DNA of 64,000 nt, from positions 44,996-108,995 of IMG/VR virus record IMGVR_UViG_3300005805_000051. One strand, 5' to 3'. A program made the position numbers and the translations under genes. Positions 748 through 45,958 of the stretch are shown piece after piece (the stretch's first letter is position 1; each line of letters begins with the position of its first letter). The notes below the pieces were generated by a model, which searched no databases, was not told where the DNA came from, and was given only the letters and a program-made list of their open reading frames with translations. Source of the DNA: a virus.

Positions 748-2655
748 TTAGAACACGATTGCGCCGTTGATGATGCGACCCGCTGTGGTGCCGCGACGGT
801 CTAACAGATCAGGTAGCACTCGTACACTCACACTCTCCGCAGGAATCCGCACAATCTGTGACCGACGTGCGATAATGTCCGTTGTATTTGGAATCGCCTG
901 TACGCGTACTTCCCCGATAAAATTTGTCGTAATATTTGTCGGATAGAAGTGTGTCAGAGACACCGCTCCCGTGGCAAAATTTACCGTACCAACACCACTC
1001 TTGACTAAGGTTTTACCGGTAGCAGGATCATCGCGATATACATTAATCACATTTGCATGATTTTCAATAAAACATCCAGAATACACGAATCCTGTCGTAT
1101 CTGCATGCGAGAATCGTTGTGTGCCTACTCGACTTGTGACGGTCACCAATTGATTTGCGTCAGTTGCTTCAAAAACAGGGTTAGAAAATTCTAAAGTGTA
1201 TGACCCAGTAGTCGCGACCACCCGAAAGCGTTTTTCCATTTTTACCGCAGTGATATTACTTTGAATGCTTTGTTCTGCACTGTCGATAAGCTTTGATACC
1301 TGTGAGTATCGGAAAATGGAACCAAACTGACCCACGGTAATCTGCCCATACCCGACAATTGCATTACTGATTAAAGCGGCAAGTTCAGAGGTATTGCGTG
1401 AGGTTAACGCGGGAGTATACTTAGCCTCAACATCAACCGCGACATAGATGTAGTCGGGGTCAACAAATTCATATCCAAGAATCGGCAACGATTTTGGACG
1501 CAATACATGGTCGAGAATCGAGTTCTTTTGCGTATCTCCGAACTTATCACCGTTGAACGGTTTCAGGGCGATAAACATCTTCCCATATACCGGAGGATCG
1601 TTATCTTCACCGCCCCAGATGGATACCGATTCGATGCCGCTATACTCGGTGAGCAGTACTGTTCTGGCATCTTCTGGGGTCACAATACGACCCTGTACCT
1701 GATAAATCGCCGGAGCATTCTTTTTGATACTATCAATCGATTCGCGAACATCTCCACCGTACGCCGGTACGTTGATGTTGTTCAGCACGGTGGCCACCGT
1801 CACGCCGGTGGTATTGACGACGAGATTTCCCACGGTATCGGCGAACGAGAAGGTGTTAGCCCCGTTCCCGCGCGTCCCACCAGAAATCAGATAATCCGCA
1901 ACCACTTGTTGCCCGACTGTTAGGTTGCGACCAAGACGGCCGTCTCCGAATTGAATATCGTAAGTGCCATCATTGTTTTCAAACAGGAAGTAAACATTTG
2001 TAGTCGGACCAACCACGACGGCTGATGTTGCACGGTCATAAATGAACGAGGTTGTGCTATTTGCGTCAGGCTTCACCGAAATCGTGATGGTGCGGGTATC
2101 AATTGTTTCGTTGGGGAGGGTCAACTTTACCCCAGAGGCTTGAATGTCTCCCGACGCAACGGTAAAAGTTTGGGTCAGCTTAATACCTTCGTATAGCTCG
2201 GCCCCGATGAACGTCACGGTGTTTGCCGCAAATGTTTCCTGTTCGGCGTCATCAATCGTATAAAAAGTCAGCGTTTGATTACCCGTCGTTGATGAGAACT
2301 TCGTATAGCGGGGAAGTTCTACCGTAACCTCTGTCGTGTCGACACCATTCAAGGTTACATCGACAATCGCAGTTGCACTTGAAATAGAACGCGGGACGTA
2401 GCCTAGCTGACGCGCGGCAGCCACCACCGAGTTTCGAATCTGGGCGGTTTGCAGGAAGACTTCGTTAATTGCAAAATTGGTATACCAGCCATGGTAGTAA
2501 GCATCATATGCCAACACATCCAGAATCGTGCTGATGGCTGATCCCTCATAGTTATAATCTTGCAGTAGCGTCTGACTTTGTAAAAACCGCTTGAGGTCAG
2601 CACGAATGGTATCAAAGTCCAGTGGGACAATTTGAATTTCGGAAGGTAGTGGCAT
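748..2655 (-). CDS. gp6: Baseplate wedge subunit gp6
   Basis: LDFDTIR..DYNYEGSAISTILDVLAY..NEVFLQTAQIRNSVV..LGYVPRS, FGDG and ESIDSIK motifs. Confidence 0.95.
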   Translation of the reverse strand: MPLPSEIQIVPLDFDTIRADLKRFLQSQTLLQDYNYEGSAISTILDVLAYDAYYHGWYTNFAINEVFLQTAQIRNSVVAAARQLGYVPRSISSATAIVDVTLNGVDTTEVTVELPRYTKFSSTTGNQTLTFYTIDDAEQETFAANTVTFIGAELYEGIKLTQTFTVASGDIQASGVKLTLPNETIDTRTITISVKPDANSTTSFIYDRATSAVVVGPTTNVYFLFENNDGTYDIQFGDGRLGRNLTVGQQVVADYLISGGTRGNGANTFSFADTVGNLVVNTTGVTVATVLNNINVPAYGGDVRESIDSIKKNAPAIYQVQGRIVTPEDARTVLLTEYSGIESVSIWGGEDNDPPVYGKMFIALKPFNGDKFGDTQKNSILDHVLRPKSLPILGYEFVDPDYIYVAVDVEAKYTPALTSRNTSELAALISNAIVGYGQITVGQFGSIFRYSQVSKLIDSAEQSIQSNITAVKMEKRFRVVATTGSYTLEFSNPVFEATDANQLVTVTSRVGTQRFSHADTTGFVYSGCFIENHANVINVYRDDPATGKTLVKSGVGTVNFATGAVSLTHFYPTNITTNFIGEVRVQAIPNTTDIIARRSQIVRIPAESVSVRVLPDLLDRRGTTAGRIINGAIVF

Positions 2656-12516: not shown

Positions 12517-12698
12517 GGTTTCAGTATGATACGTTAGGCAATCACTTTCAAACGAACTTTGTGCTGATGCAAGACCACCACTGGTCGTGGACAGACATTC
12601 AGAACATGGTGCCGTTTGAACGGGACATTTACATCATCCTCTTGCGTCAGTGGGTCGAGAAAAAGAATGAGGAGACAAAGAGGCAGACCACACGATAA
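12504..12698 (+). CDS. gp51: Baseplate hub assembly catalyst gp51, probably reached by -1 frameshift from gp26
   Basis: NHFQTNFVLMQDHHWSWTDIQNMVPFERDIYIILL is the gp51 motif; no ATG precedes the conserved block; slippery site at 12504-12510. Confidence 0.85.
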   Translation, partial: FFRLGFQYDTLGNHFQTNFVLMQDHHWSWTDIQNMVPFERDIYIILLRQWVEKKNEETKRQTTR

Positions 12699-12708
12699 AT
12701 AGGCGCAT

Positions 12709-15174
12709 ATGGCAGAAAATCGCAATCCTTCAAAAAAAATATCCTTCGTGGAGCAGTTTTACAAGCCCGAAGCAGTTCAATCTGAGATGGCTAAGACATT
12801 TCTGAATGTCACAAAAGAGCTATCGGATAAAAAAGCAATGGCTCTAAAAAAGACTATTGCCCCGTTCGAGAAGCAAGTTGAAGGAACTTTAATTAGTTCT
12901 TCGGGTGAAAAGCAATCACTGGTTGAGTTATATTACAATCAGATTGCTGAGATTTATTATGGCTCCGCCGAAGCATCAACGGATATTATTAAGCGAGAAC
13001 TGCTTCCTACGTTGGAAGATATCAGTTCATCTCTTCGATCAGAAATTGCATTAAGTGACGAAGAAAAAGACCCTCTTCTAAAAATTATCGGAGAAGCACA
13101 AGATGCGTTAAAATCTCGCATCAGTGTTATTGGTCGTGTTGCGGCAAAAACAAAAGCTCTTGCCGGCAGTGGCGTTGTTCAATCGTTCCTCGCAGGGGCA
13201 GCGACCGACAACCCCCTAGTAGCATTAGCTGTATTTGCCGCTAGCAACCGACCAAACAAGAAAAAAACCGTCGAAATTGAAGAATCGCGCCGGCAAGCAT
13301 CAATGGAGCGAGGAAAAAAATCGTTTGCCGCATTAGACGAAGCGACTGCTCCTACCGCAACCAAAGAAGGTCGAGCAGGAACACGACCATCAGCAAAAGC
13401 GTTGTCATCGTCTGCTGGAGGCGATGGAGGATTTGCTCTTGGTGATGGGGAGGGTGGTGGTGGAGGTATTGCAGGCATTCTTGCAAAACAAACCACCACA
13501 TTAGAAAGCATTGACGCGTCGATGAAAGGTATGGTTGAACTGTTTAGTAAGCAGTTTGACCTTCAACAACGGCAGGCGGAAGAATCAACATTTGAAACTA
13601 GCTCTGCGGTCAAGATGACTAAAGAAAAAGCTGATGATGGCAAGGAAGAAAAAAAACAAAAAGGATTTCTGGAAACCTTACTTGGTGGATTTGTCGGAGT
13701 TGCAGACTTTATCAAAGGCTTACTTCCTAATTGGATGACCGAACTTGGTGGTAAACTTTTTGGAATGATTTCTACGCTTGGGAGTACCTTAAGTACCGCA
13801 CTTTCGTCTCTTGGTTCGACTCTTTCTGGTGCATTTTCAGCTCTCAAAGGTGGACTTTCAAGTCTTTTGTCAAATATTTTGCCCGCTGGAGCAGGAGCTA
13901 CCGCAGCATTTTTAGGTGGTGGATTGGCTGGTGTGGCGGCCACAGCCGCTACATTTAAAGCCATCAACGCAGGTCCAGCCCTTGTCGGAAGTGTTTACAA
14001 GAAAGCTAAAGAATACGGACTCGATCAAACAGGTTCAGTTACTGAAATTTCAAAACGTATTCGTGCCTATGAACAATCAAAAGGCATGACCCTTTCGAAA
14101 CAAGCCCGTGTTATTAATGAAGGTGGAAAACCTGTTCTCCTAGAAGAAGGCGATCCTCGATTGACCGCAGCACCGGCGGCCGCACCTGAAAAGGCTGCAT
14201 CATCTGCGGCACCTACATCTACTGGCACTCCGTCTTCTCCACCACCAGCTCCACCAGCCCCAACACCTTCGGCAGCACCAGCAGCAGCACCAACGCCTCC
14301 AGCACCTCCACCACCGTCTGCAACACCGACGCCTGCACCCACGGGCCCGGCTGCTGAATCATTGGGGAGTGTTGATGAAAACATGAAAATGATTATGCAG
14401 CATGAGGGCGTGCGGACACGACCCTATAAAGATTCTCTCGGACTGTGGACCGTTGGTGTGGGGCATCTCATCGGTGATGGAAAAACGCTCCCCCCTGAAA
14501 TGAACCGCGAATTTTCACAAGCGGAAGTCATGAGCATGTTCAAAAAAGATTATGAACATCATGCCACAGCCGCAGCAAAAATTCCCGGCTTCAACAAAAT
14601 GAATTCTACGGGCAAGGGCGCGCTCATCGACCTCACCTTCAATATGGGACCAAAATGGTATACAAAGTGGCCCAATACCGTAAAAGCTCTTAGTGCTGGA
14701 GATGCGGAAGGTGCGGCAAGTGGTCTTGAAAATTCAAAATGGTATCGTCAAGTAGGCAACAGAGCGCGAAAAATTGTTTCAATGGTTCGTGCAGGATTTT
14801 CGGGTAAACCCACAACCACCCCTGACGCTGCGTCTGGTAATGTCCCCACACGATTTGCCGAAGCTTCAACCGGCGGTGGTGCGGGAGGGGGAGCGGGTGC
14901 TGGTAGTGCAACCACATCTATGGCACAAGCATCTCCCTCAACTGGTGGTGCCCCAATAACAGCCGCTCCTGCTGGTGGTGATATGGTAGCCACAGGTCGT
15001 GCATCGATGACCCCAAGCTTACAAGTTGCCTCCGCTGCTCCGTCTTCAGGTGGTGTAGTTGTTGGAGGTTCAAGCACCAATGTCATCAACAACGGGGGTG
15101 GTGGACAACCGATGGGACGACTACCCGCACCAGTCGACGGGGAACCCGTTGTGCGTCGTGTGATTAACGCCTAA
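12709..15174 (+). CDS. Tape-measure-like protein (gp29 position) with a GH24 lysozyme domain
   Basis: Long helical Ala/Gly-rich region, Pro/Ala linker, then HEGVRTRPYKDSLGLWTVGVGHL..FNMG..SKWYRQVGNRA. Confidence 0.8.
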   Translation: MAENRNPSKKISFVEQFYKPEAVQSEMAKTFLNVTKELSDKKAMALKKTIAPFEKQVEGTLISSSGEKQSLVELYYNQIAEIYYGSAEASTDIIKRELLPTLEDISSSLRSEIALSDEEKDPLLKIIGEAQDALKSRISVIGRVAAKTKALAGSGVVQSFLAGAATDNPLVALAVFAASNRPNKKKTVEIEESRRQASMERGKKSFAALDEATAPTATKEGRAGTRPSAKALSSSAGGDGGFALGDGEGGGGGIAGILAKQTTTLESIDASMKGMVELFSKQFDLQQRQAEESTFETSSAVKMTKEKADDGKEEKKQKGFLETLLGGFVGVADFIKGLLPNWMTELGGKLFGMISTLGSTLSTALSSLGSTLSGAFSALKGGLSSLLSNILPAGAGATAAFLGGGLAGVAATAATFKAINAGPALVGSVYKKAKEYGLDQTGSVTEISKRIRAYEQSKGMTLSKQARVINEGGKPVLLEEGDPRLTAAPAAAPEKAASSAAPTSTGTPSSPPPAPPAPTPSAAPAAAPTPPAPPPPSATPTPAPTGPAAESLGSVDENMKMIMQHEGVRTRPYKDSLGLWTVGVGHLIGDGKTLPPEMNREFSQAEVMSMFKKDYEHHATAAAKIPGFNKMNSTGKGALIDLTFNMGPKWYTKWPNTVKALSAGDAEGAASGLENSKWYRQVGNRARKIVSMVRAGFSGKPTTTPDAASGNVPTRFAEASTGGGAGGGAGAGSATTSMAQASPSTGGAPITAAPAGGDMVATGRASMTPSLQVASAAPSSGGVVVGGSSTNVINNGGGGQPMGRLPAPVDGEPVVRRVINA

Positions 15175-15227: not shown

Positions 15228-16154
15228 CTAATCATCATCAAACTTCCGCAGTCGTGCGTCGTCTTCGTCCTCGTCGTCATCACTGACACTCGGGGGCGTC
15301 CACGGGCGTGCCGAGGTTGGAACCGGCACGTCATCATCCTCATCCAGCTTCGCAACCGCAGGACGACGGGTGGCACTCACAGGGGCATCATTCGGCGTCA
15401 GGTATACTGACGTATCGAATGTCATCACCTTATCAAGCTTCTTCTTCAACTCTTCATACGACTTGAACTTCTCCGGTGCGACAATCTCCGTCAGCGACCG
15501 CAGCCCGTTCAGCACCTGAAGAATCGCGGTTTCGTTGCCCTTCAGCAGCGGTGACGGCGCTTCAAATGCAGAATCATCATAGTTGGGATAGCCCGCCTGC
15601 TTCTTCTGACGCAGACGGAAGTTCGCCCCGTCAATCACATGGAACGGATCAACCGGCTGATCATCCTCGAACTCCGGCTCAATCGCCTTCGTGATCTTGT
15701 CGAAAATCTTCTGACCGAAACGGAACAGAAACACCTTACCGTCGTTCTCGGGATTTCCCTTGTCCTGCACGACATAGATGTTTGCCACATAGGTCTTCTT
15801 ACGTGACTGCTTTCGTACCTGATCTCGCAGGGTATCATCCTTCGTCGCCCACATGCGTGAGTTGTAATCCCCAACGGGATCAGACTCTCCAATCGTCGTG
15901 CGACTCAGTTCGATATACCAGCCGTTCGGTCCTTCAAACGCATGACGATAGAACGACACAAACGGAATCGTCTCCGGCGGGGGCGCAGGAAGAAACCGGA
16001 TGATCGCGGACCCATTGCCTGCCTTATCGACGGTCGGCTTCCAATAGCCTTCGTCGTCGCGGGCCCCGCCTTCCTTCGTCTGACTCTTGACCGCCGCCTT
16101 GAGCTTATCCAGCGAACTACTCTTCAACAGACTCTGAAACTGAGATGGTGACAT
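15228..16154 (-). CDS. gp32: Single-stranded DNA-binding protein gp32
   Basis: WKPTVDKAGNGSAIIRFLPAP..NIYVVQD..GKVFLFRFGQKIFDKI..GANFRL..NYDDS; acidic tail. Confidence 0.97.
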   Translation of the reverse strand: MSPSQFQSLLKSSSLDKLKAAVKSQTKEGGARDDEGYWKPTVDKAGNGSAIIRFLPAPPPETIPFVSFYRHAFEGPNGWYIELSRTTIGESDPVGDYNSRMWATKDDTLRDQVRKQSRKKTYVANIYVVQDKGNPENDGKVFLFRFGQKIFDKITKAIEPEFEDDQPVDPFHVIDGANFRLRQKKQAGYPNYDDSAFEAPSPLLKGNETAILQVLNGLRSLTEIVAPEKFKSYEELKKKLDKVMTFDTSVYLTPNDAPVSATRRPAVAKLDEDDDVPVPTSARPWTPPSVSDDDEDEDDARLRKFDDD

Positions 16155-16219: not shown

Positions 16220-16528
16220 TTAACCAAGTTTATCCAATAGAAACGAATTATCTTTCAACAATCGCCGACGAGACATCTCTTCCAACAGTGCCAACTTTAA
16301 GGTCGGGGTCAATAGCGGCTTTACGGATTCGTAATCCCGCTGGTAATATTCACAGAGTTCCAGAATCGCCTCGAAGTGCGATATCTGGTACCGTTGCACA
16401 ACGGTCAGCACCACTTTAGTAAACGCTTCCGGGGTAATCTCGGCATCTTGTTCCGGCAAGCGTTCATCTGCGTGTTGGAACATTTGTCCGAAACTACGAA
16501 CCGTGAGCGTAGAATTTGTGCTGTCCAT
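16220..16528 (-). CDS. gp33: Late transcription coactivator gp33
   Basis: F...V..V.....ISHFEAILELCE....DYESV..LL...LK..L..E; upstream of gp32. Confidence 0.75.
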   Translation of the reverse strand: MDSTNSTLTVRSFGQMFQHADERLPEQDAEITPEAFTKVVLTVVQRYQISHFEAILELCEYYQRDYESVKPLLTPTLKLALLEEMSRRRLLKDNSFLLDKLG

Positions 16529-17090
16529 ATGTCTTTACATGTTGTAACTGCTTTGACCACGCCGGCGAAATTGACACATGATGGAAGTGTGTGATGTTTT
16601 CGTACGACTCCCGTAGTATAGCACGATTTTGAAGAAATGTTTTAGCCATGTCGATATATTTTTGTGGTGGCACACGACGCCACTTCGCATAATCGGCTGT
16701 CCATGAAAATTGTGCAGCTTGATAAACGACACCACAGACAGTGTGTGGATACGCATCAGACGACATCCGGTTGAAAACTACCGCCGCGACCGCCTCAATG
16801 CCTGCTACGGGTTCATATGCCGATTCAAAGAAAATATTTTGGGCAAGACACAACACTTCATTCGTGACCCGCTTCGGTCGCGTGACTTTTGCGCGTTTCA
16901 CTGACTTAACTTTTTCTGGCGTACTCCGCTGTAATGTGGCCGGACGAATTGCAATATGGTCGACAGGGGTGAATGTGTATACATTTTTCGGACGATTCCC
17001 GATGCCTTGACTTATGGCCATGACAATCAGAGTCAGGGCTAACCCTCGTGACGCCCAAATCCGAATCGACGATTCTCGTTTTCGTGCCAT
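16494..17090 (-). CDS. SleB-like cell wall hydrolase (Hydrolase_2) with an N-terminal membrane anchor
   Basis: CLAQNIFFES..AVAAVVFNR..YPHTVCGVVYQ..QFSW..HFH..P.W..G.HKFY; SD GAGGAG before ATG 17090. Confidence 0.9.
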   Translation of the reverse strand: MARKRESSIRIWASRGLALTLIVMAISQGIGNRPKNVYTFTPVDHIAIRPATLQRSTPEKVKSVKRAKVTRPKRVTNEVLCLAQNIFFESAYEPVAGIEAVAAVVFNRMSSDAYPHTVCGVVYQAAQFSWTADYAKWRRVPPQKYIDMAKTFLQNRAILRESYENITHFHHVSISPAWSKQLQHVKTYGQHKFYAHGS

Positions 17091-17102: not shown

Positions 17103-17143
17103 GGAAAAAGAAAAACGCCGGTTTTGGGTCAGCGGAGCCGGCG
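17103..17143 (-). terminator. Terminator after the tmRNA
   Basis: GCGCCGG..CCGGCG followed by TTTTTCTTTTT on the minus strand. Confidence 0.55.
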
Positions 17144-17405
17144 CGCTGTGATGATCACTTCTGTTGCAAGGTGGAACATCGAACCCCTGACTCATGAATG
17201 AGTCAAGTAGCTGCTAGGCAGCCATTGCGAACTGATAGGTGTCAGTTGCGAGTGTCTCTGTTTAACGTCAGCGACTTGACGATAGCCTCCATAGCTTTCT
17301 GCCGATACTCTGTCGAATCCAAGTCACCCCCGTAAGTTTGAATGGTGGAGGTGGGCGGGTTCGAACCGCCGTCCAAAATATCCGAACGCTACTTCATCAG
17401 CTACA
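17110..17405 (-). ncRNA. ssrA: tmRNA, circularly permuted (two-piece)
   Basis: T-arm and CACCTCCACCA (ending 17343) precede GGGGGTGACTTGGATTCGAC (starting 17331); G3-U70 pair; tag ORF ATDTYQFAMAA* at 17249-17214; outer ends approximate. Confidence 0.9.
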
Positions 17406-17413
17406 TTCTGTAT

Positions 17414-18163
17414 TTATGTCAACACCGTCTGTTGTACCTCGGCAAACCGTGCCACGCGTTCTTCTAGCAACGGGCGCCAGAGTTCAGCCGAAGATTCTTG
17501 CCAAACCAACAGTTTCGGGCACAACTGTACAATCACGATGGTATCTATAGTACCACGACCCAACCATTCTGTCAACGCATCCGCATAAAATGTGGCTTGC
17601 AAGGCATAGTTAGTCACCCGATTGTCCGTTTTGGGTTTTTTGCCAGTTTTAAAATCAATCACCGCAAGACGACCATCGGTCAGTTCCGCACAAATGTCCA
17701 TGCGTCCAGCCACTTTATGACGCGTAGACATGATGCGTGACTCGGACAATAATACCGTGCGAATCCGCGCATTCAGCAGCGTTCCGATCGCCGCGGCCAT
17801 CGGTGGGTCAGATGGGTCTTTCAAATATTTCCACAGAGGCTGCCCCGTGATGAAGGATTCGCAGAAATCATGCCAACGGGTACCGTTTCCCGCGGCGGTT
17901 TTGGTGACTCGATCCGCTTCCACTGCCCCGACGCGTTTCCGCCACTTACGAAGTGCCGATTGCCCTTCATCATCAGTCGCACTCAGCAGTGTCGTAATCG
18001 ACGGATAGCGTTCTCCTTCGCTCGTATACCAACGTTTCCCGTCGTGATAGGTTTCACTCAAGGTGACGCGCAACGGTTGAGGGTCGTAGGTAATCGTCGA
18101 CGCAGGAATGTCAGCCGCATTCCAAAACGGATATTCATGAACATGCCATTCCTGTTGTGTCAT
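17414..18163 (-). CDS. PD-(D/E)XK exonuclease
   Basis: RWY..G.RYPSITTLL..WRKRVG..GT.WH..E..AGRMD..IDFKT..Y.LQ..Y. Confidence 0.9.
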   Translation of the reverse strand: MTQQEWHVHEYPFWNAADIPASTITYDPQPLRVTLSETYHDGKRWYTSEGERYPSITTLLSATDDEGQSALRKWRKRVGAVEADRVTKTAAGNGTRWHDFCESFITGQPLWKYLKDPSDPPMAAAIGTLLNARIRTVLLSESRIMSTRHKVAGRMDICAELTDGRLAVIDFKTGKKPKTDNRVTNYALQATFYADALTEWLGRGTIDTIVIVQLCPKLLVWQESSAELWRPLLEERVARFAEVQQTVLT

Positions 18164-26754: not shown

Positions 26755-27723
26755 CTACGATGCAGATGGGGAGGTTTTCTCGCGAACCTGAAGGAACGAC
26801 GGCACATCCGACACGCGGTCATCAATCGGCAGTTCCATCGTCGGTGTGGGTGTTGATGCGGGTGGGGCTTCCACCAGTCGAATCTTGCCCGTGCGCGGCG
26901 GCGTGAGGGTGACGACTTGCGGAGATGGGGGGTCACTAGGTGCGTCAACCACCACAGGGGGAGTCCGCTGTGTAAATAAAATATTTGCGGCAATCAAGAG
27001 CATGACCGCCATCGGGTCGAAGACGAGCATCAACAATGCAGTCAACCACACGACTGCTTGGCGAATCGTGTCGAGGTCATCACTGCCATATACGGCTTGT
27101 GCGACATAGCGCAACGGCCCAATATCAGCGGTTGCTTTATTGGTTTCGGTTTCTGTCGTGATGCGTTCTTTTTGTGCCGCACTGAGGTCGGCGTTAATGC
27201 GTTTCAAGTCGGCAAGTAACGCCGTGCGTCGTGCTGCGTTTTCACGCTGCACCGCAACCGCTCCTGTTGACCCGCGTAAGCGTTGTGCGGCGCCCAGTTG
27301 TGATACCAGTTGTGATGACTGCTCATTCAACACTTTCAGTTCGGTATTGATTTGGTCGCGTTCCTGTTGCAGTTGCATTTCTCGCTGTTGGACTTCATTC
27401 AGGGTCAGTTCTGCGGTGGCAGCCACGCCTTCCGTTTCTACATGAGCGCGAGTGAGGAAGCCAAAAATGCCTAAACTGGTAATCAGCATCAGCGTTAGCG
27501 TAGCGGCATAAAAGTACGCACGCACCCCGCGTGCCGCCAAATGTCGATAGCGGTACATCCACGAGACGGCGACCAGCTTTGCGACTTCGAGCGTACTGGC
27601 GAGCGCGACCACGGGCCAGAAGGCCCCCGCATAGATGAGTGCTAAACCGAAAACGGAGAAAAACGCGGCTAGTCCTGACAGAGTAAGCCCTGTCAAGAGT
27701 GTGAGCCAAGCAAAAGGTAGCAT
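26755..27723 (-). CDS. Conserved phage membrane protein with a coiled coil
   Basis: LSGLAAFFSVFGL..LEVAKLV..LMLITSLGIFGFL..IGPLRYVA..LVFDPMAV. Confidence 0.85.
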   Translation of the reverse strand: MLPFAWLTLLTGLTLSGLAAFFSVFGLALIYAGAFWPVVALASTLEVAKLVAVSWMYRYRHLAARGVRAYFYAATLTLMLITSLGIFGFLTRAHVETEGVAATAELTLNEVQQREMQLQQERDQINTELKVLNEQSSQLVSQLGAAQRLRGSTGAVAVQRENAARRTALLADLKRINADLSAAQKERITTETETNKATADIGPLRYVAQAVYGSDDLDTIRQAVVWLTALLMLVFDPMAVMLLIAANILFTQRTPPVVVDAPSDPPSPQVVTLTPPRTGKIRLVEAPPASTPTPTMELPIDDRVSDVPSFLQVREKTSPSAS

Positions 27724-27731
27724 ACTGGTAT

Positions 27732-28358
27732 TTATCCTTTGGTTTCTTTGGCTTCCTTAGTTTCTCTCCAACGTCTCCATCGCTCCCGCATTTTTTCTCG
27801 CGCCCCCTCGCTGTGTTTTTTGCCTTTGAATGGATTGTTCGTTAGCATTCGTTGTCTATTCTTTTCAGTGAACGATTTAGGCATTTTTTTATTTCGCTGG
27901 CTTTCCGAACGACGAGCGCAGGCTTCCGGGGACATATCGTAGGTTCTGTTTCGGTTAGAAATAGATAGTCTCGCTCGATGTTCTTCTGTAAAGATACGGT
28001 TTTTGAGTTTTTCTCGTCGTTTTAATTCTGCATCAGGGCGTGTTTTTAAATATTGCTGGAGGTATAACCAGCCATGCTCACCCCCATCCGTCATATTGTA
28101 GCCTAATTCTTTTGTATTGAGGGTAGCTATCCAATACATTTCACGGTCATTTACTTCTTCGGGGGTTGTCTCTTCTAAAACGGTATGAGTAAAAACCTCA
28201 GGGCCGTATTTACGAATGGCCTTATGAAGATATGCAGTAGAACCTTGACGCGCAGATTTACAATGTCCCGACCATCGTTCATGTAGTTTAGAACGCGTCT
28301 GCCCGACGTATTGTTTTCCGTTGACAGTATTGGTGAGAAGATAGATAATAGCAGACAT
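27732..28358 (-). CDS. Free-standing GIY-YIG homing endonuclease with NUMOD3-type repeats
   Basis: IIYLLTNTVNGKQYVGQT..RW..H..AIRKYG..E..WI..GYNMTDGG; NPFKGKKHSE. Confidence 0.92.
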   Translation of the reverse strand: MSAIIYLLTNTVNGKQYVGQTRSKLHERWSGHCKSARQGSTAYLHKAIRKYGPEVFTHTVLEETTPEEVNDREMYWIATLNTKELGYNMTDGGEHGWLYLQQYLKTRPDAELKRREKLKNRIFTEEHRARLSISNRNRTYDMSPEACARRSESQRNKKMPKSFTEKNRQRMLTNNPFKGKKHSEGAREKMRERWRRWRETKEAKETKG

Positions 28359-44398: not shown

Positions 44399-44490
44399 TG
44401 GTCCTCTCACTTGGATTCGAACCAAGACTACGCCCACATCTAGGGCTGCGGCGGTATAAGCACCGTGTGCTGCCGTTACACTATGAGAGG
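44399..44490 (-). tRNA. tRNA-Ile(UAU) with a long variable arm
   Basis: CCTCTCA/TGAGAGG acceptor stem plus ACCA; anticodon loop CT-TAT-AC; 22-nt variable region. Confidence 0.8.
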
Positions 44491-44495
44491 AAAGA

Positions 44496-44570
44496 TGGTG
44501 GGTCCGGCAGGGATCGAACCTGCGACAAACTGGTTAAAAGCCAGCGGCTCTACCACTGAGCTACGGACCC
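44496..44570 (-). tRNA. tRNA-Lys(UUU)
   Basis: GGGTCCG..CTGG CT TTT AA CCAG..GGTTCGAT..ACCA. Confidence 0.95.
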
Positions 44571-44601
44571 GAACGAGATTTAGTATACCATAAATACGGA
44601 C

Positions 44602-45213
44602 ATGAATATCTTCCGTTCAAAATCATTTATTGCTGCCTGCGCGTGTGCTGGATTTGCTGTGTTGCTCTTTGCCTTCAACGACGCGACGGCTTTCTGCGTC
44701 ACTCCGCCCGTATCTAAACAAGGCGCTCGGCCACGCACGACCTTCCGCTATCGTGTGGTCGGGTATCAGCCCACAGGGGCGGAGGCGTGTGTTGACCGTG
44801 CATTTGCCGCATGGAACGACGCACTAGTCGATGGGTCAAATATTCAATTCATCCCTGCGGGAAGTAAAGAAAAAATTGATGTCACTATTTTCTTTACCGA
44901 CATCAAAGGTGACGTTGCGGGAGAAGAAATCGCCGGCGGAACAACCCCGGCGTTCAGAGATGCGGAGGGGTATGTAACGGGATTTGGAATTATGATTTCC
45001 ACGAATCCCGCTCTCGTATCGTCTTGCGACGGCTACTATAAAGTAACCCTGCACGAAATTGGACACGGATTAGGACTCGGGCATCCCTATGGGATTAACG
45101 GCACATCCGTGATGAATATGCTGTCTTCTACGAACGACGAGGGCGGGAACGTAGCAGAGTTTCCAACTGCATGCGATATCGGGCAGATCGAGTCCGCGAC
45201 CACGTATCGATAG
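44602..45213 (+). CDS. Secreted matrixin (M10-like) zinc metalloprotease
   Basis: Signal peptide, HEIGHGLGLGH, Met-turn SVM. Confidence 0.88.
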   Translation: MNIFRSKSFIAACACAGFAVLLFAFNDATAFCVTPPVSKQGARPRTTFRYRVVGYQPTGAEACVDRAFAAWNDALVDGSNIQFIPAGSKEKIDVTIFFTDIKGDVAGEEIAGGTTPAFRDAEGYVTGFGIMISTNPALVSSCDGYYKVTLHEIGHGLGLGHPYGINGTSVMNMLSSTNDEGGNVAEFPTACDIGQIESATTYR

Positions 45214-45568
45214 CATCCCCTTCGTCTTCATCCGGCTCGGCACCGTCGTCATCGTCGTCGTCCGGTTCATCATCATTCGGCAGCGTCTGATTACTCACTG
45301 CATCCACGATCACGGGTTCTGGAGTAGATGCCGCAAAACCCATCGGGGTCTTCGAACTCTTGCCGGCGCTCATCTCGTCGTCCTCATCAGAAAAATCGAT
45401 CACATCATCCAGTTCTTGCCAAATCGCGAGTCCGATTTTTCCCAGTGCAGCGATTTCTGCCTCTTCCGTGAGCTTCTTGTGCTGAAGATCACCCCTGACA
45501 GTATCGAACCCATCGATGAGTCCGCGTGAAATTGCACTCGCTACGATGTTCTTGATGTGAACTCGCAT
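45128..45568 (-). CDS. Acidic hypothetical protein
   Basis: ORF downstream of a late promoter (45608-45602); 3' end overlaps the matrixin gene. Confidence 0.6.
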   Translation of the reverse strand: MRVHIKNIVASAISRGLIDGFDTVRGDLQHKKLTEEAEIAALGKIGLAIWQELDDVIDFSDEDDEMSAGKSSKTPMGFAASTPEPVIVDAVSNQTLPNDDEPDDDDDDGAEPDEDEGDAIDTWSRTRSARYRMQLETLLRSRPRRS

Positions 45569-45620
45569 ACGGCCTGCTTTCTGAGAGACGAACGTTTATA
45601 GTATTTAGTGAATAGAAGGG

Positions 45621-45706
45621 TGGTGCCTCTGACAGGATTCGAACCTGTAAGCCTGTGAAGGCGGTTGATTTTAAGTCAACCGTGTATGCCGTTCCACCAC
45701 AGAGGC
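45621..45706 (-). tRNA. tRNA-Leu(UAA)
   Basis: GTTGA CT TAA AA TCAAC, long variable arm, CCA. Confidence 0.95.
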
Positions 45707-45712
45707 GTATAT

Positions 45713-45796
45713 TGGTGCCCGCGACAGGACTTGAACCTGTATGACCGAAGTCAGTGGAGTTTGAAGCCACCGTGTATGCCATTCCACCACGCGGGC
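45713..45796 (-). tRNA. tRNA-Leu(CAA)
   Basis: Leu-type body; GTGGC TT CAA AC TCCAC with a 31-39 mismatch; CCA. Confidence 0.85.
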
Positions 45797-45806
45797 GTTA
45801 TTCAAT

Positions 45807-45880
45807 TGGCTGGGACGCTAGGACTCGAACCTAGACAAAGAGCTTCAAAGGCTCCTGTGCTGCCATTACACCACATCCCA
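45807..45880 (-). tRNA. tRNA-Gln(UUG)
   Basis: TGGGATG..GAGC CT TTG AA GCTC..GCCA. Confidence 0.95.
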
Positions 45881-45884
45881 ATCT

Positions 45885-45958
45885 TGGTAGCAGGGCCGGG
45901 AATTGAACCCGGTTCTTGGCGTTATGAGCGCCACGAGTTTCCGTCTCTCTCCCCTGCG
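45885..45958 (-). tRNA. tRNA-Met(CAU), initiator-like
   Basis: CGCAGGG/CCCTGCT with C1-U72 mismatch; TGGCG CT CAT AA CGCCA. Confidence 0.85.

Follow-up and report, generated by a model that had tools for sequence, protein, structure and literature searches.

A predicted two-piece tmRNA gene of a divergent lineage in an uncultured T4-like phage

Introduction

Two-piece (circularly permuted) tmRNA genes beside gp33 are already on record for aquatic T4-like phages. Buchholz et al. 2022 (PMC9004378) described such a gene directly upstream of gp33 in the Methylophilales phage Melnitz and counted it in 17 of 47 Melnitz-like contigs; among the unique phage tmRNAs in that study, taken from isolated phages, 53 of 133 were of the two-piece kind, and 50 of these 53 were marine or aquatic. 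In the Pelagibacter phage Mosig EXVC030M (Kyanoviridae; GenBank MT647606), SsrA is annotated between a PD-(D/E)XK nuclease gene and a gp33 homologue, and ARAGORN finds this tmRNA to be permuted. The alphaproteobacterial two-piece tmRNA is of the Caulobacter type, as Keiler et al. 2000 are cited for it in PMC9004378.

Here we analyze a gene of this kind in a stretch of 64,000 nucleotides (the window), which is part of a 108,995-base IMG/VR virus record estimated by CheckV to be about 60% complete. An earlier note on the window, made from its letters, had proposed a phage-encoded, circularly permuted tmRNA on the minus strand. Our analysis makes it likely that this is a working two-piece tmRNA gene in an uncultured T4-like phage. 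Given that the tmRNAs of Melnitz and Mosig near gp33 have been published, the kind of gene, the phage group and the locus are already known, and the novelty that the earlier note implied was overtaken in 2022 (PMC9004378).

Results

Detection and layout of the RNA gene

ARAGORN, one of the programs proposed in the earlier note, called a permuted tmRNA on the minus strand at 17123-17435, with ATDTYQFAMAA as its tag. The Rfam model RF04321 (tmRNA_permuted) matched positions 17214-17404 with 93.9 bits, compared with a gathering score of 47 (E = 7e-17), and the alignment covered the model from end to end (positions 1-213 of 213) without a non-standard pair in the consensus helices. This match is far beyond chance. 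Taken together with a T4-like gene context, these two results bear out the proposed phage-encoded permuted tmRNA. The minus-strand positions given for the ATAAATA motif, the T-arm, the CCA end, the spacer, GGGGGTG, helix 2 and the frame at 17249-17214 were all verified (Table 1). On this strand the CCA comes before the GGGGG at 17331, so that the two halves are swapped. The tRNA-like domain has a 7-bp acceptor stem with a G3-U70 pair, a discriminator A, an encoded CCA and a T-arm loop of the GGTTCGAAC type; the earlier description is thus right on the G3-U70 pair, on helix 2 and on the AA end of the tag.

The spacer between the two pieces is 3 nt long in the related phage locus L036, 4 nt in Rhodocyclales and about 95 nt in the related locus L035. 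With 11 nt, the window RNA exceeds the 4 nt of its bacterial relatives, which deprives the word "compact", used earlier for this RNA as a special trait, of its basis. Besides the tag and the hairpins on either side of it, the coding piece carries a conserved 3′ block. The RNA would end at a G+C-rich stem of 6–7 bp that closes a 16-nt loop and precedes TTTTTCTTTTT; an automatic terminator scan missed this stem because of its loop limit. Upstream of the tag we found no clear pseudoknot PK1: by eye, its second stem would have at most 3 bp, and hairpin P3 alone is supported. Since an unconstrained two-strand fold recovered the acceptor stem only, we relied on the covariance-model alignment and on covariation for the structure.

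Table 1 Features of the predicted tmRNA gene and its neighbourhood in the window
Feature	Positions	Strand	Basis or remark
PD-(D/E)XK exonuclease gene, upstream neighbour	17414-18163	-	PHROG 298, 2e-46; Pfam PDDEXK_1
ATAAATA, late-type promoter-like motif	17411-17417	-	overlaps nuclease TAA stop, 17416-17414
Acceptor piece, about 62 nt	17343-17404	-	Rfam alignment; mature ends inferred
P2c, 5′ strand of helix 2	17404-17400	-	in acceptor piece
P2b, 5′ strand of helix 2	17393-17390	-	in acceptor piece
P2a, 5′ strand of helix 2	17382-17374	-	in acceptor piece
Helix 2 segment, GATATTTTG with CAGAGTATC	17382-17374 with 17312-17304	-	read from sequence
T-arm, GGCGG-TTCGAAC-CCGCC	17370-17354	-	read from sequence
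Acceptor 3′ strand, CACCTCC	17353-17347	-	then discriminator A and CCA, 17345-17343
Intervening segment, TTCAAACTTAC, 11 nt	17332-17342	-	between CCA and G1; presumably discarded in maturation
Coding piece	17105-17331	-	predicted; covariance-model alignment and covariation
Acceptor 5′ strand, GGGGGTG	17331-17325	-	start of coding piece
Helix 2, 3′ strands	17312-17282	-	in coding piece
Hairpin P3, before tag	17281-17266	-	pairing kept through two-sided changes
Tag frame, GAC ACC TAT CAG TTC GCA ATG GCT GCC TAG (DTYQFAMAA, stop)	17214-17243	-	comparison
Hairpin P5, after tag	17207-17186	-	pairing kept through two-sided changes
Possible extra helix, CAGCG with CGCTG	17148-17144 with 17134-17130	-	one compensatory change, in L035
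Terminator-like stem, then T-run	17143-17138 with 17121-17116, then 17115-17105	-	
Cell-wall hydrolase gene, 198 aa from ATG 17090	16494-17090	-	Pfam Hydrolase_2, 79 bits
gp33-like late-transcription co-activator gene	16220-16528	-	Pfam Trans_coact, 35.9 bits (cut-off 25)
gp32 single-stranded-DNA-binding protein gene	15228-16154	-	Pfam gp32, 150 bits; PHROG 224, 2e-99
gp5-like hub lysozyme	12709-15174		T4-type neighbour
gp6	748-2655		T4-type neighbour

Genome context

The genes around the RNA are those of a T4-like phage (Table 1), and a ribonucleotide reductase gene also belongs to the phage context. The PD-(D/E)XK nuclease adjoins the tmRNA in L005, L007-L011, L013, L014, L016, L017 and L033-L036, loci from the searches described below, as well as in phage Mosig, and gp33 follows the tmRNA in the relatives, Mosig and Melnitz. 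The viral tmRNAs that score on the alpha or the beta model (L005-L017) are flanked by one or several of the nuclease, gp32 and hydrolase genes. When its frame is taken from the corresponding ATG, the hydrolase is 66–67% identical in L007 and L009; a longer hydrolase frame, reaching to 17195 and overlapping the RNA, is probably not real, and we take ATG 17090 as the start. By gp32, the closest isolated phages are cyanomyoviruses. Since the identity to them is only about 48%, the phage is, judged from its genes, a remote member of the aquatic T4-like phages. We rejected the reading of the RNA gene as an attachment site, since no integrase was found in the record and the gene is complete.

Relatives and covariation

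A pattern scan of IMG/VR for the acceptor-spacer-GGGGGTGA arrangement returned 16 contigs, all of them with permuted tmRNAs, and the RNAs of three (L007, L009 and L013) were near-identical to that of the window. A search with gp32 added four related phage loci (L033-L036), three of which (L033, L035 and L036) have an RNA of this family according to a covariance model; L034 has a remnant of the acceptor piece only, with a terminator after it. Homology with the relatives starts at about 17406-17403. Against 50,697 phage records, blastn gave no match for the 3-kb region and nothing beyond one 35-nt match for the RNA, and a metagenome scan returned nothing but the originals of L007 and L009. ARAGORN gave one match in 49 gp32-related loci, which is an undercount, since three of the four closest loci proved to have the gene when searched with the covariance model; L033 and L036 are genes that ARAGORN misses.

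We aligned the window RNA with those of five related phage loci and wrote out nine helices comprising 55 pairs (alignment A3, six sequences). Standard pairs occupied 93.9% of the pair cells, as against 35–46% in a control in which the 3′ partner was slid by 1–3 columns. Both sides were altered in 29 of the 55 pairs, and none of 500 shuffles matched any of five pairing measures. The acceptor stem and the T-stem were paired in 100% of cells in the six sequences, and compensatory changes were seen in every helix of the acceptor piece. In L035, for example, the strands of the acceptor stem are GGGGGCG and CGCCTCC, in L036 GGGCTCG and CGGGTCC. The alanine identity element, a G-U pair at position 3 of this stem, is present in all six sequences. 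Helix 2, with segments of 5, 4 and 9 bp, was paired in 90–92% of cells, and 12 of its 18 pairs had changed on both sides.

At the nucleotide level, the window RNA is 93–94% identical to those of L007 and L009, whereas four flanking genes are 57–71% identical. Compared with L033 and L035, the RNA is 72% identical, with pairing maintained. The RNA is therefore structured and under selection.

The relatives also form a decay series, which leads from intact genes through one with a non-canonical T-loop (L033) to the acceptor piece alone (L034). As the remnant and the odd T-loop indicate, the gene is dispensable in some relatives. One could accordingly ask whether the window gene is itself a decaying passenger, either captured from a host or left over from an integration site, with no role for the phage. 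Integration often takes place at tmRNA genes, fragments of which occur in prophages (PMC9004378); decay is visible in L034, and many gp32-related loci are without an ARAGORN call, although ARAGORN missed true genes. By contrast, the window gene is complete, with both pieces present, its conservation exceeds that of the flanks, its covariation is strong, its locus is stable across distant phages, and the record is devoid of an integrase. T4-like phages are, in addition, lytic. We consider a decaying passenger the most improbable of the explanations weighed here.

The upstream motif

T4-like cyanophages are reported to use CTAAATA or NATAAATA as late promoters, and the ATAAATA motif ahead of the RNA had been put forward as a promoter of the late type. 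In the 109-kb record, with crude ATG calls, gene starts lay at most 40 nt downstream of 6 of 12 ATAAATA sites and of 14 of 29 CTAAATA sites, with a chance expectation of about 2%. For the combined (C/A)TAAATA motif, 20 of 41 sites were at most 40 nt upstream of a called ATG; the figure for TTAAATA and GTAAATA together was 0 of 16. Taken by itself, ATAAATA shows no enrichment in the window, with 8 sites where 5.1 are expected. The strict T4 late-promoter consensus TATAAATA, which in T4-type late promoters stands about 6 nt ahead of the transcript start and works with gp33 and gp55, is absent from the 64 kb.

The motif recurs in the relatives. CTAAATA stands 11–13 nt before a conserved GATGA near the RNA 5′ end in L033, L035, L036 and the L034 remnant. 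The motif is not adjacent to the RNA in two loci: L007 has CATAAATA at the nuclease stop codon, followed by an insertion of about 50 nt bearing a hairpin, and L009 has an extra ORF between the nuclease and the RNA. Because (C/A)TAAATA is tied to gene starts and recurs ahead of the RNA in four relatives, and because the phage has gp33, the window motif is best read as a putative late-type promoter, which is plausible. We rejected a sigma-70 promoter built on the TTGACA overlapping this motif, as no acceptable -10 hexamer lies 16–18 nt downstream.

The tag and its resume codon

The earlier note and the ARAGORN call for the window begin the tag two codons upstream of the frame in Table 1, at GCA 17249-17247. 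Across the clade, the codon at this position is GCA, GCA, AGA, AGA, GTA and CGA in the six loci. Two places further on, five loci have GAC, and L007 has GAT, which is synonymous. The frame from there on varies through synonymous changes (GAC/GAT, GCA/GCT, GCT/GCA and TAT/TAC), and the AMAA end is retained in five of the six loci. Moreover, ARAGORN starts the tag on GAC in L009, L013 and L035, and the Rfam beta-model alignment sets the resume codon on GAC at 17243-17241. Given the variable GCA, the constant GAC/GAT, the later synonymous changes and the starts chosen by ARAGORN and the beta model, GAC is more likely than GCA to be the resume codon, and the tag would then read DTYQFAMAA after the charged alanine. 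Of the tag first proposed (ATDTYQFAMAA), the frame, the TAG stop at 17216-17214 and the AMAA end hold, and the first two residues are doubtful, since the GCA codon is replaced in relatives. The synonymous changes lend support to translation of the frame.

The RNA might instead act as a decoy or modifier that competes with the host tmRNA for SmpB, either blocking trans-translation or swapping the tag and so altering the fate of tagged proteins. In mycobacteriophage DS6A, the tmRNA consists of the tRNA-like domain only and resembles a reported strong inhibitor of host tmRNA (PMC4131195, PMC11915505). L034 likewise retains the acceptor piece only; a search for SmpB gave no PF01668 match in the 109-kb record, about 60% complete, and the first half of the tag differs from that of the bacterial ANDERFAMAA, with translation probably resuming on Asp. 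Conservation and covariation, however, extend over the whole coding piece, beyond the tRNA-like domain. The AMAA end, canonical for a protease-type tag, is retained, and the tag has changed synonymously, which indicates that a degradation tag is really translated. We therefore regard a decoy or modifier as unlikely.

Lineage

The Rfam searches proposed in the earlier note gave a divided answer, in that the general permuted model matched and none of the three lineage models reached its gathering score. The beta model (beta_tmRNA, RF01850) scored best among them, with 67.5 bits against 84 and an alignment over positions 1-331 of 331; the cyano model (cyano_tmRNA, RF01851) aligned to the tRNA-like domain only and gave 54.8 bits against 70, and the alpha model (alpha_tmRNA, RF01849) 37 bits against 50. 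The one-piece tmRNA model remained below its threshold as well (36.1 bits against 47). For L033 and L035, the alpha model was the best-scoring one, and both pass it, with 68.1 and 50.2 bits, respectively.

Searching 185,579 species genomes with the tRNA-like-domain pattern of the window returned 12 genomes, nearly all of them Rhodocyclales or Burkholderiales MAGs, with tags of the form ANDE(R/Q)FA(M/L/V)AA and beta-model scores of 202–242 bits; the spacer has 4 nt in 11 of the 12. Letter for letter, the window's tRNA-like domain is that of Rhodocyclales two-piece tmRNAs with the tag ANDERFAMAA. Both this domain and the FAMAA ending of the tag speak for the beta lineage. In a MAFFT/FastTree tree of 26 permuted tmRNAs, the phage clade did not fall within the bacterial beta group, with identities outside the clade of just 45–50%, and the tree does not resolve the lineage.

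The earlier note had raised the possibility of an independent permutation event, in which the phage lineage would itself have permuted a one-piece tmRNA, apart from the alphaproteobacterial, betaproteobacterial and cyanobacterial events. The failure of all three lineage gathering scores, the preference of clade members for different models (alpha for L033 and L035, beta for the window) and the position of the window RNA outside the bacterial beta group in the tree would agree with such an origin. The beta model and the merged permuted model, however, both aligned end to end with the parts in the same order, the one-piece model scored below its threshold, and the tRNA-like domain and FAMAA end match Rhodocyclales two-piece tmRNAs. 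The nuclease-tmRNA-gp33 locus, furthermore, holds two-piece tmRNAs in distant T4-like phages, Mosig and Melnitz included, so that it is simpler to assume that a gene already permuted was inherited or exchanged. An independent origin thus seems very improbable to us. We conclude from these comparisons that the window RNA belongs to a divergent phage lineage whose tmRNA was permuted already; a fresh permutation is neither needed nor supported.

More tentatively, and with considerable doubt, the RNA may belong to a phage-specific two-piece lineage that has occupied the nuclease-tmRNA-gp33 locus since before the pelagiphages, the methylophages and this clade split, and that resumes on Asp. It would have drifted away from the three bacterial lineages, as each lineage model failed and the clade members score best on different models. 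Were this so, the tmRNA would be a long-term phage gene that co-evolves with the SmpB of successive hosts, not a recent capture from a host.

Discussion

The two-piece tmRNA gene that we consider likely to be at work in this phage could function as follows. Transcription would begin near 17406 from the (C/A)TAAATA late-type promoter and end at the stem and T-run near 17110. Host RNase P would cleave before G17331 and 3′ trimming would bare the CCA at 17343, yielding an acceptor piece of about 62 nt and a coding piece of about 220 nt, joined to each other through helix 2 and the acceptor stem. The RNA would be charged by the host alanyl-tRNA synthetase and brought by host SmpB to ribosomes stalled on broken messages; we assume this dependence on the host protein, as is done for other phage tmRNAs, because no SmpB was found in the record, which is about 60% complete. 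With translation resuming on GAC, (A)DTYQFAMAA would be appended, the product marked for host proteases and the ribosome freed. The likely gain to the phage would be that ribosomes are kept free in the late phase of infection, with host RNA synthesis off and truncated messages piling up.

The two-piece tmRNAs published for marine phages are joined here by a divergent uncultured T4-like clade, which comprises the window, one remnant and six intact relatives from IMG/VR. The covariation shows selection on the whole RNA, not merely on its tRNA-like end. Such genes can be missed or under-scored by ARAGORN and the lineage-specific Rfam models, as L033, L036 and the window illustrate, and a comparative argument is now available for an Asp resume codon. 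No new kind of biology is opened, since aquatic T4-like phages with a two-piece tmRNA beside gp33 are already in print. Details worth keeping are the proposed Asp resume codon, the putative late-type promoter, the failure of all lineage models and the decay series.

Among known systems, the one-piece tmRNAs of Bxz1-group mycobacteriophages and Bacillus phage G (PMC4131195) resemble the window RNA in being borne by phages and in their putative phage role. Together with the form of DS6A that consists of the tRNA-like domain only, they are standard-order or truncated genes of unrelated phages, and the window RNA differs from one-piece tmRNAs in its low score on their model. With the alphaproteobacterial RNAs (RF01849) it shares the permuted architecture and presumed maturation, and two members of its clade pass their model, whereas the window RNA does not.

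The betaproteobacterial RNAs (RF01850), represented by Rhodocyclales MAGs of Propionivibrio, Azospira and Proximibacter, are closer: T-stem, acceptor stem and CCA are identical, the spacer is short, the tag ends in FAMAA, and the window RNA aligns to the model from end to end. The two differ in score (67.5 bits in the window, 202–242 in the bacteria), in overall identity (45–50%), in the first half of the tag, in the stretch ahead of the resume codon and in the 3′ domain, and the window gene is phage-encoded.

The nearest counterparts remain Mosig and Melnitz, which have in common with the window a permuted gene in a T4-like phage, the neighbourhood of PD-(D/E)XK nuclease, tmRNA and gp33, a sporadic occurrence of the gene among relatives and, for the 109-kb record here, no match to a phage SmpB. 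In contrast to both, the window sequence is very divergent, its longest blastn match to a phage being 35 nt, its 3′ domain is without the glutamine riboswitch, and the RNA is separated from gp33 by a hydrolase gene. An early promoter has been proposed for Melnitz, whereas that of the window is putatively late-type, and the tag is GEDNFALAA in Mosig and predicted to be DTYQFAMAA in the window.

Sequence surroundings of the tmRNA gene

The two-piece tmRNA gene is preceded by the PD-(D/E)XK exonuclease gene, and a near-consensus sigma-70-type site lies within the 3′ part of this neighbour, approximately 140 nt upstream of the tmRNA. Judged from its sequence, this predicted promoter could provide early read-in transcription. 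In the two closest relatives, loci L007 and L009, a hairpin is inserted directly before the 5′ end of the tmRNA; the window lacks it. Possible roles for the hairpin are RNA processing, as a cleavage site or similar, and a small mobile insertion is another candidate explanation.

The late-type promoter-like motif ATAAATA also occurs close to start codons. At several real genes of the window, encoding proteins of 821, 322, and 203 amino acids, only 5–7 nt separate the motif from the ATG. If transcripts start approximately 6 nt past ATAAATA, the messages of these three genes would be almost leaderless.

Elsewhere in the window, the tRNA gene cluster includes a 92-nt Ile-TAT gene, whose variable region carries an insertion of approximately 19 nt in the Rfam alignment. 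The segment 21160–21552 gave no Rfam match at gathering thresholds.

Coordinates of features in the window and in related phage loci
Feature	Location	Strand	Details
Near-consensus sigma-70-type site	window 17547-17575	minus	TTGACA, 17 nt, TACTAT; upstream TG
Inserted hairpin	L007:2466-2521; L009:1433-1490		CACTAAC, ~11 nt, GTTAGTG
ATAAATA motifs near gene starts	window 12695-12709, 27723-27735, 44590-44604
tRNA gene cluster (n=6)	window 44399-45957	minus	Ile-TAT, Lys, two Leu, Gln, Met
CCA-to-GGGGG spacer of tmRNA	L035:3342-3436 (IMGVR_UViG_3300046804_005139)		~95 nt
tmRNA locus	L034:3900-4010 (IMGVR_UViG_3300020193_001026)
tmRNA, T-arm region	L033:3725-3760 (IMGVR_UViG_3300005805_000944)

tmRNA loci in related phages

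Three loci brought in by the gp32 search differ from the window at the tmRNA. In L035, the long spacer between the two pieces has an ATG at its opening, followed by a hydrophobic-looking frame that extends into the coding piece. The L033 tmRNA has an intact T-stem and a non-canonical T-loop, GGCAGAG as against the GTTCGAA type; it was undetected by ARAGORN, and the covariance model scored it at 71.9 bits despite the odd T-loop.

L034 comes from a close relative (gp32 77% identical). Its locus has lost the coding piece of the tmRNA and retains just CTAAATA, the relatives' counterpart of ATAAATA, an acceptor-piece-like stretch with a CCGCCTCCACCA end, and a terminator. Two readings are available for this locus: a remnant left by decay, or a form consisting of the tRNA-like domain only. 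The second would liken L034 to phage DS6A, which has such a tRNA-like-domain-only form.
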